Of a stretch of DNA of 7,997 nucleotides, positions 2-7,997 are shown piece after piece. Below the pieces are notes generated by a model that worked only from the letters and a program-made list of their open reading frames with translations, was not told the origin of the DNA and searched no databases. Each line of letters starts with the position of its first letter. The stretch's first letter is position 1. The DNA is from a virus (Duplodnaviria > Heunggongvirae > Uroviricota > Caudoviricetes), in the IMG/VR virus record IMGVR_UViG_2565956613_000013. One strand, 5' to 3'. The position numbers were made by a program, and so were the translations under genes.

Positions 2-3000
2 ATGAAACGGCTTAATTTAGGGGACGTTTCTCGTGTAGTTCAGGAGGGCATTGCTCAACAGGAACAGCAGGCCAAATCAACTACACCAAAGGGTAAAAAA
101 AGACGCAGGAAGGCTATATCAGAGGATATAAAGGCACAACGGACCGAAGCAGCCGAACACGCTCGCGAAATGTTCGATCAAAAAGGCGGTGCGCAAAAAA
201 GCCAAAACCAACGCGATGCGCGTGGTCGTTTTATTGGAAAGTCAGGGAGTAAGGCCGCAGCGGAAGATGCCCGTGCTGAACGTGCTGAAAAGGCCAGGCG
301 CAAAGAGGATGATGAGCGTCTAAATGCTGAATCAGGTTTATTAAAAAAACTGTCAAAAGTAGCTGAAGGCATAGGTAACCCTTCAGAGACTCGTGCCGTC
401 GATGCGTTAGGTTATGCCGTTGCTGGTCCATTGTGGGCAGCAGGGAAGGAGCTTGGCGGGATATCAAAAGAAGTTGGTGGATCGCTTAATGGCGCCAGAA
501 AGTCTATTGCCGATGTGATTCGTGGCAATGACGATAACAGCCGTAGAAAAGGTTTTTTTAGGCGTAAATCGCAAAATAGTGCCGATGTCGTTCAGGTTAA
601 CACCCAAAAACGGACGGTTCAGGAACTTCAGGAGCAGACCAGCGAAATTAAAGAGGGCAATGACAAGATTCTCAGCGCCCTTGATCAGATAGCCAAAAAC
701 ACCGGGAAAAAGAAGGGCGGCTTGCTGTCCAAACTATTTAGCCTGTTAGGGAAGGGGGCCGGTGGCGTCGCGTCGTTGTTAATGGGGCGTGGCATGCTGA
801 AAAAAGCTGGAGCACTCGCTTTTGGCGCTCTGGGGGCAAAGAAACTTGTAGGAATGCTACGCGGTGGTGGCAAGAAGACTATCGCCCATGAAGGTGGAGA
901 TTTGGCTGCCCGGGCAGCAGGTAAATTTGGATTAAAGGCAGTTGGTAAAGGGGCGTTACGCGCAATTCCCTTAGTCGGCACAGTGGCTGGAGGTATTTAT
1001 GATGCGGTAACCGGTTGGAATGATACAGAAGCGCAACGTCGAGCGTTTGGGCTTAAATCAGGACAAGAGCCATCATTCCAGCAAAAAGCCGCTTATACGT
1101 TAGCCAATGTTCTTGATATGGGGGGACTGGTATCTGGTATTAGCAGCGCCATTGGTGAGGTTCTCAAATCACTTGGATTTGAGGATATCGGCAATATGTT
1201 GCAATCATTTTCGACGGAAAGTATTGCCCAGGCCATTGATAGTGGGATTACCAACTTAGAAACATATATTTCTAACCTTGGCGACACCATTTCTACCAAG
1301 TTCGAAGATTACACAGCAAAGATTGGTGATGCTGTTTCAGCATGGTTTAGCGATACATCTAATAAGCTGCTTGAAAAGCTGGATGCCATCAAAGACTTCT
1401 TTACTGTTGATAACCTGAAACAGGTTTTCAGTGATGCAATTGATAGTGCAATTGATTTCATTAAGAACCCAGGGAAACACATTAAAGAGGCGGCTGGTAA
1501 TATTTGGGATGGGGTTAAAAATTTACCTGGTAAAGCATTAGATGCAGCGGTTGATGCCGTTAAAAATACCCCTGCGGCAATGATTGTATCAAAAATACCC
1601 AATCCGATCGGCGAGGCTAATGCGAAAGAAATCACTCCGGAGTTAAAAGCTCCGGTTAATAGCCACCAGGAGACGTCTGATTCTAAAACTGAATCCGATG
1701 CCAAACAGAGTAATATTGCTACCCGCGTGATAAATGCGGCACTGGACACAGCGAAAGATAGCAATAAAACAGTTAAACAAACTGCCAATCAGATTATCAA
1801 TGCAAATGCCGTAGAAACGGGCAATAGCGCGTTGCAGAAAATTGATAAAGCTATTGGTCAAAATAGCTCGTCATCATCGTCGCTTAATACCACTGGCACC
1901 AGGAATGACATTCAGAAAGCTGCGGATACTTACAACAATGGCAACTTAGATGTAAAAGTCGGAAGTCTTGGCGCTGAAGGTAAGGCAAATCTCGATAAGT
2001 TGGCTCCGTATTTTGCCGAACTAGAGAATAAATACGGTCTTCCAGAAGGCACTCTTTACGCGATTGCTGCAACTGAATCTGGTGGTAATCCGTATGCAAA
2101 ATCCCAAACCGGTGCTCTGGGGATGTTTCAGTTCACGGGGATTGCTCGTGAAGAGACTGGCTTAGCTGAAGGTGAATCGTTTGATCCTGTGAAATCGGCA
2201 GAAGCTGCGGCTCTTCTCATGAGCAAGTATCTTAAGCAAGCCAATGGAGACTTAAACGAGGCCATCACTGCATATAATGCTGGGTTTGGCACTATTAATA
2301 AGTGGAAAAAAGGCACCGGTGACTTATCGAAAGAAAACCGTGAGTACGCGATCAAGGTCAATACTCATCGTGCTCGCTATTTAGGTGGTGAAATCTATAC
2401 ACCTGGAGCAGGAGCACAGGGTGGGGCGCAATATGGAGTGAGGGGACCACTGCCTGATAACGCTGTTATCGATCAGTATACTGGCCTGGCGTTTACCCCT
2501 GGTGATAGCCCGTTTGAGAAAGGCGGTCTGGTCGACAAAATCGGCAATGCTGTTGGCGTTAACGATCTGGTCAACAAATTCATGAATGACCGGGGGATGC
2601 GTCGGGAAGTCGTTCAGGGAACGCTAGAAGAACGTGCACGAGAGAAGGGGACCGCAACAGCAGCTGGCAATGTGTATGTTGATACTCCGATGCCAGTTGA
2701 AGAGGCGCGTCCGGTGGCCAACAACTCAAGTTACTTTGACCATCTCGGCGCACAAATGGGGATTGATGGACTATTCGATAAACTCCGCAACTCGCCGGGG
2801 ATGCGGAAAAATAATGCGCCTGAACCAGCCTCCACGTCCCAGGTGACGACTGCCGCCAACGATTTGCAGCAACCAACCGGTCGTATGCAGATAGACGGGC
2901 AGGTTATTAGTGACCTTGGCGGTTCCGGTGCCAAGCCGACAATGCAGTTGGCTGATAATACCGTTTCACTTGATGGTGAAACGAAGCGGCTGTTTGCGCA

Positions 3001-3160
3001 GATGACCTCATTGCTTGCCAGGATTGAAGAGCACACCAAAGACTCGGCGAAAGGCCAGGGAACTGTCGTAAAGGTCAGCACGCCTCAGCCGGGCGTTATG
3101 CGCACGGTACCACTGTCAATTGATGATCCGTTGATGAATGACTACGCGAGAGTTGATTGA
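2..3160 (+). CDS. sit: Phage tail tape-measure-like protein with an embedded lytic transglycosylase (SLT) domain, P1 Sit-like; 5' end probably cut by the window edge
   Basis: 1052-codon ORF from the ATG at 2-4 to the TGA at 3158-3160; only one base lies upstream, so the true start may be outside the window. Highly charged N-terminal region (KGKKRRRK, ERAEKARRKEDDER), then Gly/Ala/Lys-rich amphipathic segments (GGLLSKLFSLLGKGAGGVASLLMGRGMLKKAGALAFGALGAKK) typical of tape-measure proteins. SLT family motifs are present: AIAATESGGNP (Glu codon 2075-2077), GMFQF, AYNAG. The gene symbol rests on architecture, not on a sequence search. Confidence 0.8.
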   Translation: MKRLNLGDVSRVVQEGIAQQEQQAKSTTPKGKKRRRKAISEDIKAQRTEAAEHAREMFDQKGGAQKSQNQRDARGRFIGKSGSKAAAEDARAERAEKARRKEDDERLNAESGLLKKLSKVAEGIGNPSETRAVDALGYAVAGPLWAAGKELGGISKEVGGSLNGARKSIADVIRGNDDNSRRKGFFRRKSQNSADVVQVNTQKRTVQELQEQTSEIKEGNDKILSALDQIAKNTGKKKGGLLSKLFSLLGKGAGGVASLLMGRGMLKKAGALAFGALGAKKLVGMLRGGGKKTIAHEGGDLAARAAGKFGLKAVGKGALRAIPLVGTVAGGIYDAVTGWNDTEAQRRAFGLKSGQEPSFQQKAAYTLANVLDMGGLVSGISSAIGEVLKSLGFEDIGNMLQSFSTESIAQAIDSGITNLETYISNLGDTISTKFEDYTAKIGDAVSAWFSDTSNKLLEKLDAIKDFFTVDNLKQVFSDAIDSAIDFIKNPGKHIKEAAGNIWDGVKNLPGKALDAAVDAVKNTPAAMIVSKIPNPIGEANAKEITPELKAPVNSHQETSDSKTESDAKQSNIATRVINAALDTAKDSNKTVKQTANQIINANAVETGNSALQKIDKAIGQNSSSSSSLNTTGTRNDIQKAADTYNNGNLDVKVGSLGAEGKANLDKLAPYFAELENKYGLPEGTLYAIAATESGGNPYAKSQTGALGMFQFTGIAREETGLAEGESFDPVKSAEAAALLMSKYLKQANGDLNEAITAYNAGFGTINKWKKGTGDLSKENREYAIKVNTHRARYLGGEIYTPGAGAQGGAQYGVRGPLPDNAVIDQYTGLAFTPGDSPFEKGGLVDKIGNAVGVNDLVNKFMNDRGMRREVVQGTLEERAREKGTATAAGNVYVDTPMPVEEARPVANNSSYFDHLGAQMGIDGLFDKLRNSPGMRKNNAPEPASTSQVTTAANDLQQPTGRMQIDGQVISDLGGSGAKPTMQLADNTVSLDGETKRLFAQMTSLLARIEEHTKDSAKGQGTVVKVSTPQPGVMRTVPLSIDDPLMNDYARVD
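1990..2390 (+). other. Soluble lytic transglycosylase (SLT, family 1 type) catalytic domain inside the tape-measure-like ORF
   Basis: Translated segment LDKLAPYFAELENKYGLPEGTLYAIAATESGGNPYAKSQTGALGMFQFTGIAREETGL...AITAYNAGFGTINKWKKG carries the ES, GLMQ-like (GMFQ) and AYNAG signatures of lytic transglycosylases. Domain boundaries are approximate. Confidence 0.75.
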
Positions 3161-3516
3161 TGGCCAACAATAACGAAATTGATCCTTTGCTGACGCTGGA
3201 GTTATCCGGCGTAAAAACGTATGAGTCCCAGGAGGAGGCCTGGGGCGCTCGTTTATATGAGTGGCTAAACACTTATCAGGGTGAGGTATACGGAGATCCG
3301 TCATGGGGCAATGTTTTACCGCTGTTTAAACACGAACCGACCAACTTGTCGCATGTTCAAATTGCGGTTGAGGCAATGCTGTTGCAAAAACTGACGGTAG
3401 ATTTACCTGACATACCGATTTCTGGCTTGTCAGTAGCCGAGGGAGATGCTTTTGATAAGTTGAAAATATCCATTCGTATCAGGGATATAACTATCACACA
3501 GGACGTGGTGCTATGA
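3160..3516 (+). CDS. Small baseplate protein, gp25/GPW-like (P1 pmgA position)
   Basis: 118-codon ORF; its ATG at 3160-3162 overlaps the upstream TGA by one base (TGATG). The ORF track starts it at a TTG at 3157; I prefer the ATG. The segment EEAWGARLYEWLNTYQGEVYGDPSWGNVLPLFKHEPTN resembles the conserved core of GPW/gp25 baseplate wedge proteins as I recall it. Position directly after the tape-measure gene fits. Confidence 0.55.
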   Translation: MANNNEIDPLLTLELSGVKTYESQEEAWGARLYEWLNTYQGEVYGDPSWGNVLPLFKHEPTNLSHVQIAVEAMLLQKLTVDLPDIPISGLSVAEGDAFDKLKISIRIRDITITQDVVL

Positions 3517-4946
3517 GTAAAACAACACCGACTAAAGACAGTATTCGTGCAGAGTTTGAAGAGCTTGTCGAGAAAGATTCATTCTGGTCGAAGTTTGTCG
3601 GCTCTCAATTTGTCTCGATGCTGACATTGTTTATTACCCAGATTGTCTACAGGTGCTTTCAGTATGCCGATGCGGCGCTGGCTGAAGGCTTTATATCGAC
3701 CGCGACGCGGCGTTCCTCTATCCTGGCAGCGGCAGAAACGAATAGTTACGTTGGTACCAAGCCAACACCGTCATCGGGGATGATTGAGATCACCGCCACA
3801 AGTGAAGATGCCCCAGCGGTAATCCCCAAAAATATGCCTTTAATATCTGACGACCAGTACCCTTACATGACTATGGATGTATGCAGGTTGGTTGACGGCA
3901 CCGGTACGGTAGAAGTGGCACAGTTGGAAATCCAGGAGGTGACATATACCGTTACGGCAGCCAAAGAATTTCTGGAAGTCGTGTTATCAAAGGCTCTCAC
4001 TGCTGTCTGCTATAAGCTGGAAGTATTCGTGACGACCGATGGTAAGACCACGCAGTGGTCTTCCAGCACTATGTTCCGGTTAGCCGGTAGTAAAAGCCAG
4101 GTCTACGTTGAGTTTTATAAGCCATCCGAGCAGTTGGGGGTTCGATTCGGTGATGGGCTAATTGGGCAAATACCGCCAGAAGGCTCGACCATTACACTTA
4201 AGGTATGGTGCACCAACGGAGATATAACCCTGGTTGCTGGCCAAAACCTGACGCCTGTCGATTCTGCGGCTAATTTAGCTAATTTGATTTCAGTTAAGAC
4301 AACGACACCCATAACCGCAGGTACCGATGCCGAAACAACGGAGATCACACGTAATCGTGCACAATATTACCTTGCCTATGATGATCAGGTCGTATGGGGC
4401 GGGGACTATACGTATTTTTTGGTGCGTAACATCCCGGGACTGTCCTGGGTAAAGGCATGGGGCGAAGGCCAGCAAGAGAAATTAGATGGTGCTTATAATG
4501 TTCGGAATATCAATAAGATATTTATTTCAGGATGGCATCCAAACAAAAGCCAGTCAGAGCTTGAAGAAGTGATCCTGGCTGCCTTTAAGAAGGTGCCGAA
4601 TGAGTTGAACAAGAAATTCTCGTATAAAGAGGTCAGAAAACTCCCCTTTAAGATCACTATCACTGGGCGGATATCGGCAAGCCTGACCATTGAGAACGTG
4701 ACTGATGAGCTGAAGTCGGCACTGGAAACAAAATTTGGGCGTGACTCAACTTTCTTTGATCCGAACCGTGTTGGCAAGTACATCCTAATCAAGAAAAAAG
4801 ACGTTTGGGCATTTATCGAAACGCTGGGTTATTTCCGCGACTTTTATCTGGAATTTGTCGAGTGGAATGAGTCCAACGGCTTTTACGATTTCGTTTATCT
4901 GGATACAGAAAACTCCACCTTTAATATTTCGTATGAGGAGGAGTGA
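3513..4946 (+). CDS. Baseplate structural protein, probably baseplate-J / gp47-like (P1 bplA position)
   Basis: 477-codon ORF; its ATG at 3513 overlaps the upstream stop in an ATGA (4-nt) overlap, with AGGA about 10 nt upstream. The call is by synteny: phage baseplate modules run W-like, J-like, I-like, fibre. I did not recognise a specific motif. Confidence 0.5.
   Translation: MSKTTPTKDSIRAEFEELVEKDSFWSKFVGSQFVSMLTLFITQIVYRCFQYADAALAEGFISTATRRSSILAAAETNSYVGTKPTPSSGMIEITATSEDAPAVIPKNMPLISDDQYPYMTMDVCRLVDGTGTVEVAQLEIQEVTYTVTAAKEFLEVVLSKALTAVCYKLEVFVTTDGKTTQWSSSTMFRLAGSKSQVYVEFYKPSEQLGVRFGDGLIGQIPPEGSTITLKVWCTNGDITLVAGQNLTPVDSAANLANLISVKTTTPITAGTDAETTEITRNRAQYYLAYDDQVVWGGDYTYFLVRNIPGLSWVKAWGEGQQEKLDGAYNVRNINKIFISGWHPNKSQSELEEVILAAFKKVPNELNKKFSYKEVRKLPFKITITGRISASLTIENVTDELKSALETKFGRDSTFFDPNRVGKYILIKKKDVWAFIETLGYFRDFYLEFVEWNESNGFYDFVYLDTENSTFNISYEEE
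4934..4942 (+). promoter_or_regulatory. Strong Shine-Dalgarno sequence (GAGGAGGAG) for the gpI-like gene
   Basis: GAGGAGGAG ends 3 nt before the ATG at 4946, and lies inside the 3' end of the preceding gene; consistent with translational coupling. Confidence 0.6.
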
Positions 4947-5782
4947 TGCAGCGTTCCTGGTTTAATAACCGGCTTACATCAGCTAAGCAAAAGTCATTGC
5001 TCTATAAATCATTGGCTGATTTGGTTCAGTCAATGATGGATGCCTTTGTTGACCCATGGTTGGAGCGAATTACCAACCGGAAGTCTATTTTTTCCATGAG
5101 CAAGGAGGATCTGGAGACCAGGACAAATGAACTTGGCCAGTTCTTTACTATCAGAACGTCGAACTCATCTTCCGTTCCGATGTTGTTACAACAGCGTCTT
5201 GATGAGATTCACTTTAAGGGGACTGAACGCCCTATAAACCAGACAATTTACCGCGAATTTAACGGTATTTCTGTTTTATGGGATCCGATATATGCACCGG
5301 TGGACCTTGAGCGTCATCCCTATGGCACGGTTCTAATACCAGAAAGCACACTGGAGACTACCGGCGGCACATTCGGTGAGATGTTTCTGACTTCCAGAGG
5401 GATGATCAGTATTCCCATAAACGACCTGGCCCGGACAATGGGGATTACTGGCACGATAGATCAGTCCGCAATTACAGAAGAAATTCTCAGAAAGTTTAAT
5501 CAGTTCGTAAAGCCTCTACTGCCACTGCATATAGTGTTTGATGGGCTTACGCTCTATTTGTCGGTTGTTGTAAATGAACAGGCCGACATGATCACTTTGA
5601 ACGAGATTTCTGATACCGAAAAAGCATTCTGCTGGTTTGAAACTTCGGATACAACTTCGCTTACTGGAGTTACGTCGATTAGCGCCCCGATCACCGCAAC
5701 GCCTGGTGGCACTATTGTGAAAGCGACACCTACGTTTGATCGCACACGCGCAGATGATTTGTTGCTGGATAGCGACGCCTGA
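4946..5782 (+). CDS. Phage tail protein I-like baseplate protein (P2 gpI / Mu gp48 family; P1 gene 16 position)
   Basis: 278-codon ORF from the ATG at 4946, overlapping the upstream TGA by one base (TGATG); a strong Shine-Dalgarno GAGGAGGAG lies at 4934-4942. The track's alternative GTG start is at 4943. The segment IHFKGTERPINQTIYREF resembles the H-x-KGT region of P2 gpI-like proteins as I recall it. TGA stop at 5780-5782. Confidence 0.55.
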   Translation: MQRSWFNNRLTSAKQKSLLYKSLADLVQSMMDAFVDPWLERITNRKSIFSMSKEDLETRTNELGQFFTIRTSNSSSVPMLLQQRLDEIHFKGTERPINQTIYREFNGISVLWDPIYAPVDLERHPYGTVLIPESTLETTGGTFGEMFLTSRGMISIPINDLARTMGITGTIDQSAITEEILRKFNQFVKPLLPLHIVFDGLTLYLSVVVNEQADMITLNEISDTEKAFCWFETSDTTSLTGVTSISAPITATPGGTIVKATPTFDRTRADDLLLDSDA

Positions 5783-5785
5783 CAA

Positions 5786-5810
5786 TCACCCCGTCCGCAG
5801 GGCGGGGTGA
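5786..5810 (+). terminator. GC-rich hairpin in the intergenic gap: candidate weak intrinsic terminator, RNA-stabilising stem-loop, or dyad-symmetric regulator site
   Basis: TCACCCCG-TCCGCAGGG-CGGGGTGA: a perfect 8-bp inverted repeat around a 9-nt spacer, extendable by inner C-G pairs, starting 4 nt after the stop at 5782. The downstream sequence CAAGTTACTTCTCTTACAAT is only moderately T-rich, so any terminator would be weak. Confidence 0.3.
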
Positions 5811-5860
5811 CAAGTTACTTCTCTTACAATGAGGCTTCACAACATTGATTAGGGAAAATC

Positions 5861-6295
5861 ATGTCTGACGTCTCAACAAACCTCTATAAGAGTCAATTGT
5901 TGGACTATTACTATCAGCGGCGCGCTGAATCGTCCATTAACAAAGGCTCTCGATTTTTAATCAGCAAGGCCGTTTTCGGTACCAGTTCACTGGTTACTAA
6001 GAAAGGAGATGGCACTTATGAGATTGGAGAACTGCCAAAGGCTTTCGATCTGGCAGAACTGACCAGTCAATTTTGCACCATCAACCTCGTCCCAACCTAC
6101 TCAGGCGGGATAATTACTGTCCGAATGGACCTTGATCAAAGTCAGTTGCAGGAAGGGAAAAACTACCCATTCAACACTCTGGTTGTTCTGGATAACGAGA
6201 ATAAGCCAATCGCCATTATTTGTGTCCAGGAAGACTCGCTGTATGTGGGCAAAACATATACCGCAGTTATGGCCATAAACTCGACTACAGCATAA
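5861..6295 (+). CDS. Small tail-fibre-associated structural protein of unknown function (P1 R position)
   Basis: 144-codon ORF with ATG at 5861 and AGGGA at 5851-5855; TAA stop at 6293-6295. It sits directly upstream of the tail fibre gene and follows the only real intergenic gap in the window. It loosely resembles N-terminal anchor regions of P2 H-type fibres (NTLVVLDNENKPIAIICVQE), which is impressionistic. Confidence 0.45.
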   Translation: MSDVSTNLYKSQLLDYYYQRRAESSINKGSRFLISKAVFGTSSLVTKKGDGTYEIGELPKAFDLAELTSQFCTINLVPTYSGGIITVRMDLDQSQLQEGKNYPFNTLVVLDNENKPIAIICVQEDSLYVGKTYTAVMAINSTTA

Positions 6296-6306
6296 GGATA
6301 TGCTTG

Positions 6307-7997
6307 ATGAATGACGTTACAGTTGTTACATCGGTTACTTACCCATCACCCGAGTCGTTGGCTCTGGTGGCTGATGTGCAATACCACGAACCATATCTGT
6401 CAGCCGCTCTAAACCGAAAATTCAGGGGAATTGTTGACCCGGGATTTTATGCTGGTTTCTTGCCTAAGCCTGGCGGTGGGATGAACCTGTTAATCACCTC
6501 AGTGGATGGAGATAAAACCGCTGGCGCGGCGTCAGTGGATATTGGTGAATTCTACCAGGTAACTATTCAGCATCGTAAGGATATCTCTCTTGCACTTAAC
6601 GCAGGCAAGAAATATGCAATTGTGCTGAAGGGAAGATACCTTCTTGGAGAAGATACCTATCAGGTGAATACCGCGTCACATATTCATGCAGCTGAATTTG
6701 TTGCCAGAACCTATACCGATTCATATCAGTTAGGTGATGGGGAACTGCTGGTTTGTACGGTGAATATCCCTGCTGGCGTATCTACCATTACTCAAGAGAT
6801 GATTGATACATCCGAGCGTATCAACCGCACGATCGGCATTGATATTTCAGACTCTGTAACCAGTACCAGAAGTGATGTTGCTGCGAGTTCGCTGGCAGTT
6901 AAAAAAGCCTACGATCTGGCGAAAAGCAAGTATACGGCGCAGGATGCAAGCACAACGCAAAAGGGATTAGTTCAGCTCAGTAGTGCCACTAACAGTACGT
7001 CCGAAGTGCTGGCCGCCACACCGAAAGCTGTCAAGGCTGCATATGACCTGGCTAACGGGAAGTATACAGCCCAGGATGCAACCACGACACAAAAAGGGAT
7101 AGTTCAGCTCAGTAGCGACACCAACAGCACTTCTGAAACATTAGCTGCAACTCCAAAAGCGGTTAAAGCTGCATACGATCTAGCAGCCGGAAAGGCACCA
7201 TCCAGTCATACACATCCCTGGAATCAGATCACTGGTGTGCCAACAGCTTCATTGACAGCGAAAGGCATCACTCAGCTCAGTAGTGCCACTAACAGCACGT
7301 CTGAAGTGCTGGCCGCCACACCGAAAGCTGTCAAGTCTGTAAAAGATCTTGCTGATACCAAAGCGCCAATAGAAAGCCCGAGTCTGACAGGAACGCCAAC
7401 CGCGCCGACGGCAGCGCAAGGTACAAACAGCACGCAGATCGCAAATACAGCCTTTGTTAAGGCAGCTATAACGGCACTTATCAACGGTGCACCTGGCACA
7501 TTGGATACGCTGAAAGAAATAGCGGCTGCGATCAATAACGACCCGAATTTCAGCACAACTATCAACAATGCCTTGGCTCTCAAAGCGCCTTTGGCAAGCC
7601 CTGCATTAACGGGTGTCCCTACTGCGCCTACCGCTGCACAGGGTACGAATAACACGCAGATTGCTACGACCGCTTATGTAAGAGCTGCCATATCCGCATT
7701 GGTTGGTTCATCACCAGAAGCTCTTGATACCCTGAATGAGCTTGCCGCAGCACTTGGCAATGACCCGAACTTTGCGACAACAATGACAAATGCGCTGGCA
7801 GGCAAACAGCCTCTGGATGCAACTTTAACCGCTCTCGCTGCCCTTGCGACTGGTGCAAACAAACTGCCTTATTTCACTGGTAAGGATACGGTAGCTCAGA
7901 CTGATTTAACGTCAGTCGGTCGCGATATTCTGGCTAAAACAAGCACACTGGCCGTTATCCAATACCTTGGTTTAAGAGAACTCGGTACCAGCGGTGA
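6307..7997 (+). CDS. Side tail fibre protein, constant N-terminal part (P1/Mu S-type, lambda Stf / P2 H-related); 3' partial, continues beyond the window
   Basis: I translated this by hand from the ATG at 6307 (AGGA at 6295-6298): frame 1 is open for 563 codons to the window end. It is missing from the supplied ORF track because it has no stop inside the window. It contains the tail-fibre repeat KG(L/I)VQLSSATNSTSE(V/T)LAATPKAVKAAYDLA and the conserved block NDPNFATTMTNALAGKQPLDATLTALAALATGANKLPYFTGKDTVAQTDLTSVGRDILAK that I recall from lambda Stf and P2 H. Confidence 0.9.
   Translation, partial: MNDVTVVTSVTYPSPESLALVADVQYHEPYLSAALNRKFRGIVDPGFYAGFLPKPGGGMNLLITSVDGDKTAGAASVDIGEFYQVTIQHRKDISLALNAGKKYAIVLKGRYLLGEDTYQVNTASHIHAAEFVARTYTDSYQLGDGELLVCTVNIPAGVSTITQEMIDTSERINRTIGIDISDSVTSTRSDVAASSLAVKKAYDLAKSKYTAQDASTTQKGLVQLSSATNSTSEVLAATPKAVKAAYDLANGKYTAQDATTTQKGIVQLSSDTNSTSETLAATPKAVKAAYDLAAGKAPSSHTHPWNQITGVPTASLTAKGITQLSSATNSTSEVLAATPKAVKSVKDLADTKAPIESPSLTGTPTAPTAAQGTNSTQIANTAFVKAAITALINGAPGTLDTLKEIAAAINNDPNFSTTINNALALKAPLASPALTGVPTAPTAAQGTNNTQIATTAYVRAAISALVGSSPEALDTLNELAAALGNDPNFATTMTNALAGKQPLDATLTALAALATGANKLPYFTGKDTVAQTDLTSVGRDILAKTSTLAVIQYLGLRELGTSG
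6901..7335 (+). repeat. In-frame tail-fibre repeats: two tandem 44-aa units (6901-7032, 7033-7164) plus a third partial copy (7258-7335)
   Basis: Units KKAYDLAKSKYTAQDASTTQKGLVQLSSATNSTSEVLAATPKAV and KAAYDLANGKYTAQDATTTQKGIVQLSSDTNSTSETLAATPKAV have a 132-nt period. Nucleotides 6972-7035 and 7272-7335 match over 64 nt with 2 mismatches (6996 and 7002), exactly 300 bp apart. Confidence 0.85.
7360..7803 (+). repeat. Two tandem 74-aa (222-nt) repeats in the tail fibre
   Basis: Unit 1 (7360-7581) KAPIESPSLTGTPTAPTAAQGTNSTQIANTAFVKAAITALINGAPGTLDTLKEIAAAINNDPNFSTTINNALAL versus unit 2 (7582-7803) KAPLASPALTGVPTAPTAAQGTNNTQIATTAYVRAAISALVGSSPEALDTLNELAAALGNDPNFATTMTNALAG; I counted 51/74 identical residues. 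The nucleotide sequences are diverged. Confidence 0.8.
7955..7980. other. Candidate 26-bp DNA-invertase crossover site (hix/gix/cix family) inside the fibre coding sequence; likely left boundary of an invertible host-range segment
   Basis: TTATCCAATACCTTGGTTTAAGAGAA. Its reverse complement TTCTCTTAAACCAAGGTATTGGATAA matches the Mu gixL sequence as I recall it (TTCCTGTAAACCGAGGTTTTGGATAA) at 21 of 26 positions, and matches Salmonella hixL at 20 of 26. It has the imperfect dyad around a central TT/AA typical of these sites, and it sits where P1 and Mu place the site in the S gene. Confidence 0.6.

Follow-up and report, generated by a model that had tools for sequence, protein, structure and literature searches.

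The 78-nt gap between gene 16 and gene R in the window, by which the whole stretch of 7,997 nucleotides analysed in this study is meant, is probably the junction of two late transcription units, and it holds the late promoter Ps together with a separate GC-rich dyad that is likely to be the 3'-end RNA hairpin of the sit-16 unit. Orthology with the experimentally mapped Ps of phage P1 identifies the segment 5810-5839 as the late promoter Ps (LPs), which serves the tail-fibre operon R-S-U. The Ps part of this result is known biology carried over by near-identity, and, read from that identity, the finding as a whole is already known.

The window is identified by nucleotide identity as part of a P1-like phage-plasmid. 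Megablast of positions 4900-7000 against phage records found phage P1, P7 and other punaviruses at 97-98% identity, and the whole window is 99.9% identical to the E. coli IncY P1-like plasmid NZ_MK410117.1. The gene map was obtained by transferring the P1 annotation by alignment and was then checked by translation, with the following result:

2-3160: sit, cut at the window start (P1 annotation and translation)
3160-3516: pmgA (P1 annotation and translation)
3513-4946: bplA (P1 annotation and translation)
4946..5782, + strand: gene 16, baseplate protein, Pfam Phage_P1_Gp16 (a family named for homologues)
5783-5860: gap between gene 16 and R, 78 nt
5861..6295, + strand: gene R, tail-fibre structure or assembly, Pfam Phage_P1_tail_fiber_R, first gene in the Ps operon
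6307..7997, + strand: gene S, tail fibre, N-terminal part, continuing past the window end, second gene in the Ps operon

The initial annotation had described gene overlaps of 1, 4 and 1 nt followed by a 78-nt gap, and the gene coordinates agree with this description. Sit and pmgA overlap by 1 nt (TGATG, 3158-3162), pmgA and bplA by 4 nt (ATGA, 3513-3516), and bplA and gene 16 by 1 nt (4944-4948), while the gap between R and S is only 11 nt. The gene 16 translation contains no internal stops and ends at the stop codon 5780-5782. Gene 16 is the final gene of the sit-pmgA-bplA-16 block, which is transcribed from LPsit in P1.

Several further features of the gene map were observed. In gene S, the megablast identity to the P1 reference and to most P1/P7 records ends at about 6995, in a repeat region, and some P1-like plasmids match the window through its end, past 6995; together these observations suggest that the element has a different S variant. 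The long minus-strand ORFs at 7249-7862 fall inside the coding region of S and are likely to be spurious. The window segment of about 5281-6995 corresponds to GenBank V01534, which is described as the P1 'IS2 insertion hot spot' and is a record without insertion-site features. In addition, the interior of pmgA (3225-3246) carries a GC-rich stem-loop, GTCCCAGG...CCTGGGGC, of -14 kcal/mol, which was flagged by a terminator-like scan and is kept in P1 (40923-40902).

The promoter was assigned by comparison with M81956, the P1 R gene region, whose coordinates convert to window coordinates by an offset of +5280 in a gapless alignment. This record has the features '-22 box of Ps' (532-540) and '-10 box of Ps' (545-550), and it places the 'transcription start from Ps phage-specific late promoter' at 559. 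The same element is annotated as LPs in NC_005856 (38318-38336), in AF234172 and in P7 (AF503408). In the gap, 76 of the 78 positions match P1; the two differences, at 5783 and 5821, are both outside the boxes, and no difference from P1 occurs in 5822-5880, a segment that runs through the R start. The elements of Ps in the window are as follows:

5810..5811, + strand: conserved AC dinucleotide directly 5' of the -22 box, from the alignment of 11 annotated P1 late promoters
5812..5820, + strand: -22 box AAGTTACTT, a 9-bp palindrome identical in M81956, NC_005856, AF234172 and P7
5821..5824, + strand: spacer CTCT, 4 nt (ATCT in P1)
5825..5830, + strand: -10 box TACAAT, identical to the annotated -10 box of M81956
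5839, + strand: Ps transcription start A5839, placed by homology with the mapped start of P1 (M81956:559)
5839..5860, + strand: leader, 22 nt, with a Shine-Dalgarno-like AGGGA at 5851-5855 read from the sequence

The TACAAT at 5825-5830 had already been pointed out in the initial annotation, which had missed the -22 box AAGTTACTT (5812-5820) that lies between this hexamer and the dyad. The Ps site has a palindromic -22 box 4 nt 5' of a -10 box, and TACAAT has the -10 hexamer form TAnnnT. Moreover, the site lies at the gene 16/R junction, in the same position as the mapped Ps and its start. The earlier statement that no usable -35 is present was also confirmed: a sigma-70 consensus scan found no match in the gap, no functional -35 lies at 16-18 bp at the Ps site, and the sole TTGACA-like hexamer is GTGACA at 5807-5812, which is 12 nt from the -10 box. 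Compared with the Ps of P1 and P7, the window has an identical -22 box, -10 box, 4-nt spacing, leader and upstream dyad, and differs solely at 5783 and 5821 (C here, A there). The spacer base 5821 is itself dimorphic in 83 close loci: about 45 share the C of the window and about 38 the A of P1.

The 11 annotated P1 late promoters share the consensus (A/G)AC-AAGTGACTT-N4-TAnnAT, in which the AC before the -22 box is present in 8 of the 11, Ps counted. A PWM was trained on the nine other P1 late promoters with 4-nt spacing, with Ps itself left out. A comparison with mapped P1 late promoters had been recommended in the initial annotation. With this PWM, the window segment 5810-5830 scored 23.1 bits, which falls inside the range of the training promoters (12.7-24.3 bits), and the next best site in the window reached 8.7 bits. 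In a control of 200 shuffles, the maxima averaged 11.4 bits and the highest was 20.4. Furthermore, a search of the window with the strict pattern AAGTNACTT-N3-6-TANNNT gave a single match, where 0.03 would be expected. The same architecture, without a -35, is shared by the ten remaining late promoters of P1 (LPmat, LPpro, LPlyz, LPdar, LPsit, LP23, LP26, LPpmgL, LPhot and LPpac); unlike Ps, none of them is accompanied by a strong GC dyad with its centre at -41. By all of the sequence-level features that define it, the window site thus belongs to the Lpa-dependent late promoters of P1, a class of which Ps, annotated in public records, is one of the founding examples. In a separate observation on this class, a small GC hairpin, gcccgttccgggc, with a T-run lies just 3' of lpa and adjoins the -22 box of LPpac (P1 AF234172 at about 90455-90474; L004 at about 43055-43074), and is a second hairpin set against a late promoter; among the ten promoters other than Ps, LPpac alone shows this.

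Previous studies have documented binding of Lpa to a conserved sequence with its centre at -22 and a requirement for the host co-activator SspA (PMC3152322, PMC1891329), and a 9-bp inverted repeat is the Lpa site in all 11 late promoters (PMC10695390). In the window, Lpa (gp10) would be expected to recognise the -22 box, and Lpa together with the RNA-polymerase-associated host SspA would, by analogy, let the sigma-70 polymerase start at A5839. The nearest complete record, which is 99.9% identical over the window, encodes a 'late promoter-activating protein (Gp10)'. The C-dependent late promoters of phage Mu resemble those of P1 in that a phage activator makes up for a -35 box that is missing or poor. 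Mu C occupies the region from -30 to -55 (PMC3152322), which is the geometry that the initial annotation had pictured for the dyad, whereas P1 Lpa binds at -22. The broader suggestion in that annotation, that the fibre genes are preceded by an activator-dependent P1-type late promoter lacking a -35, is supported by the Ps/LPs orthology.

The second component of the gap is the dyad itself:

5786..5810, + strand: GC-rich dyad, arms 5786-5796 and 5800-5810, loop GCA at 5797-5799

A perfect 8-bp inverted repeat had been reported at 5786-5810; its arms are indeed present (5786-5793 and 5803-5810), and the extended stem in fact comprises 11 pairs, one of which is G.T. The dyad begins 3 nt past the gene 16 stop, and on its other side a single nucleotide separates it from the -22 box proper, so that A5810 of the conserved AC doubles as the final base of its right arm. 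The 11-bp stem contains 8 G-C pairs and has a stability of -20.4 kcal/mol, which makes it a stable GC stem-loop. RNA folding of the 61 nt at 5775-5835 gave -24.6 kcal/mol against a shuffle mean of -15.5 (z = -3.5), and 0 of 200 shuffles were as stable. In a stem-loop scan, the dyad was the strongest simple hairpin in the window, and in the same scan its 8 G-C pairs exceeded those of any simple hairpin in the whole P1 genome.

This stem lacks a U-tract on its 3' side. The sequence 3' of the P1 dyad is CAAGTTAC, and the tail CAAGUUACUUCUCUU has 2 U in its first 8 nt; the tail CAAGUUAC... scores -1.75 against the cut-off of -2.5 used by TransTermHP. A scan for the intrinsic terminator consensus did not call the dyad, and it is unannotated in the P1/P7 records examined (M81956, NC_005856, AF234172 and P7). 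A search of Rfam at a permissive E-value gave chance-level matches only, far under the gathering scores (P9 sRNA, 18 bits against 43). Two other hairpins of P1 AF234172 were observed on the minus strand, at 54587-54564 (gap 21/pmgG) and 10463-10444 (darB/ulx). Both are U-less GC hairpins in co-directional gaps that resemble the dyad of the 16/R gap, and they are possible intercistronic stabilisers.

As judged from its distribution, the dyad is outside the promoter recognition apparatus, being absent from the ten other P1 late promoters and from the orthologues of Ps in Cronobacter phage JK004, a Salmonella arizonae plasmid and Pantoea-type relatives. The initial annotation had considered it as a class II activator site centred near -39. 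The class II-like position stands, and the figure does not: the dyad centre, 5798, is at -41 relative to the transferred start A5839 and lies near the class II position of -41.5. It is nevertheless very improbable that the dyad is a DNA site at which an activator near -41 aids Ps. This geometry and a right arm that is invariant in 83 relatives speak for such a site, but the class-defining activator element is the -22 box, the dyad occurs in 0 of the 10 other P1 late promoters, and in diverged relatives the region from -30 to -50 of the orthologous Ps is coding and the dyad is lacking. Moreover, the distance from hairpin to box differs among other lineages, and the P1 hairpin scan found no repeat copy of the dyad arms. 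The notion of an attenuator ahead of the fibre genes was likewise abandoned, since the dyad is upstream of the start and Ps transcripts would begin at 5839, past it. A CRP-like reading of the TCAC...GTGA ends was considered separately and rejected, because the orientation of the half-sites and their spacing are wrong relative to the CRP consensus TGTGA-N6-TCACA.

The variation of the dyad was followed in a close set of 83 near-identical loci (15 haplotypes). Two substitutions occur in the core stem, and both keep pairing (5794 T to C, changing T.G to C-G; 5791 C to T, changing C-G to T.G). The loop varies at 5797/5798, and the two outermost pairs are broken in 5 of the 83. No double-sided compensatory change was seen in the stem among these relatives, and covariation therefore cannot prove the structure of the dyad. 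Taken together, the population data from the 83 loci are weak evidence, compatible with a role as a 3'-end hairpin.

More distant relatives were sought in several ways. A distant blastn search returned JK004 and a few plasmids only, a viral contig scan returned near-identical loci only, and a genome contig scan by protein alignment gave 5 loci; the diverged junction set came mainly from look-ups of single R homologues. Of the diverged junction types, about 16 in number, 8 carry a hairpin past the gene 16 stop. Four of these hairpins are canonical terminators with T-runs (L092/93, L095, L096 and L105), one has a short T-run (L107), and the three without a T-run are found in P1, L097 (TGGCCCCgagcaGGGGCCA) and L094. 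The canonical terminators of L092/L093, L095, L096 and L105 resemble the dyad in being GC stem-loops 3' of the gene 16 stop and 5' of the R promoter; they end in 4-6 T, and the P1 dyad does not. Stem sequences and distances to the promoter differ among the lineages, with the exception that P1 and L092/93 share an arm. In the canonical terminator of L092, the 3' arm and the flank downstream of it align to the P1 arms CCCCGTC and GGCGGGGT, which suggests a common origin of both hairpins.

Orthologous promoters without a hairpin are found in Cronobacter phage JK004, in a Salmonella arizonae plasmid and in Pantoea-type contigs, in which R is 65-75% identical. In these types, the gene 16 stop overlaps the (T)GAC/(T)AAC before the -22 box, and the arrangement box-N4-TAnnAT is kept. 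Such dyad-less promoters read TGAC AAGCGACTT ccca TAAAAT, TGAC AACGGACTT tcca TAGAAT and TAAC AAGTCACCT gaat TACCAT. In L104, 16 and R are joined by an ATGA overlap, with no gap. The absence of the hairpin from about half of the diverged lineages and the ATGA coupling in L104 indicate that the hairpin is dispensable for the system. Furthermore, because stems, distances and presence vary by lineage, the hairpin is better described as an accessory end-of-operon module than as a protein site of fixed geometry.

The length of gene 16 also differs among these groups. It is 277-290 aa in the P1-type (window 4946-5782), 367-372 aa in the JK004, Salmonella and Pantoea types (L085 1302-2420, L086 1975-3090 and L098 348-1451), and about 540 aa in L094 and L095, where the gene is cut at the locus start. 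Elements with a gene 16 of 367-372 aa have the late promoter embedded at its stop codon and no intergenic hairpin. In JK004 and the Salmonella arizonae plasmid (L085 2431-2472 and L086 3101-3142), a 13-14 bp inverted repeat, CCATAAAATCAGAC ... GTCTGATTTTATGG, spans the -10 box of the orthologous promoter and the stretch just 5' of the R ribosome-binding site, and the P1-type leader is without a counterpart.

These data bear on what the dyad does as RNA. Because it lies 5' of the Ps start, it would be transcribed only from upstream, which in P1 means from LPsit. The dyad would most likely be a weak terminator or a 3'-end stabiliser of the sit-16 transcript. The initial annotation had offered a partial terminator among its readings, and part of this holds: a stable GC stem-loop follows the stop, and this is the most plausible role for the dyad, but the U-tract is absent. 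Without a U-tract and without a call in the scan, efficient intrinsic termination is unlikely and at most partial termination is expected, and for lack of the U-tract the dyad was not filed as a canonical terminator. That it could be an efficient terminator fully separating the sit-16 and R-S-U units is accordingly quite improbable, although a strong hairpin right past the last stop of the upstream block and the canonical terminators at the same place in other lineages are in its favour; the U-less stem, the silence of the consensus scan and the lack of annotation in the P1/P7 records all weigh against it. It is just as possible that the dyad blocks 3' exonucleases or acts as a pause element as that it terminates partially. 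U-less GC hairpins between co-directional genes can stabilise polycistronic bacterial or phage mRNA, for example as REP-type 3' stabilisers. The dyad can be likened in general terms to such intercistronic stabilising hairpins, being likewise stable, GC-rich, U-less and placed between co-directional genes; REP elements share no sequence similarity with it.

The dyad might also be a functionless remnant of a canonical terminator of the L092 type, from which the upstream arm and the T-run have been lost, so that only the promoter matters. We consider this rather unlikely. The P1 arms align with the L092 terminator at its 3' arm and flank, as such a history would leave them, and the missing U-tract, the missing compensatory covariation, the outer pairs broken in a few relatives and the hairpin-free half of the lineages all fit with it. 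On the other hand, no other simple hairpin of the P1 genome is as rich in G-C pairs, contrary to decay, both of the core-stem substitutions seen preserve pairing, and L097 and L094 have different U-less GC hairpins at the same place, which suggests recurrent retention. At the opposite end, the U-less GC hairpin could be a selected module that pauses or stops LPsit read-through on top of Ps, and so insulates the promoter from occlusion or serves as an antitermination target. This is improbable; if true, it would explain why P1, L097 and L094 keep different U-less hairpins at this junction. To our knowledge, antitermination in P1 has been postulated and never demonstrated.

The preferred reading, a 3'-end hairpin of the upstream unit next to an independent promoter, leads to the following picture. 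The dyad in the sit-pmgA-bplA-16 transcript would form an RNA hairpin marking the 3' end of that unit, and this hairpin may act as a weak terminator without a U-tract, as a barrier to 3' exonucleases, or as both. In this way, fibre-gene expression could be partly uncoupled from baseplate-gene expression, and Ps could be shielded from read-through polymerases. A literature search found no TSS, Term-seq or 3' RACE study of P1, and the text of the P1vir RNA-seq paper contains no data at the level of the junction.

In conclusion, the finding carries little weight for discovery, as the promoter is already annotated publicly. Its practical value is that the window is annotated correctly, with the Lpa box at 5812-5820, the -10 box at 5825-5830, the start at 5839 and the dyad kept apart from them. 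The question of the dyad, which is of modest scope, bears on operon insulation and on the 3' ends of mRNA in P1-like phage-plasmids.
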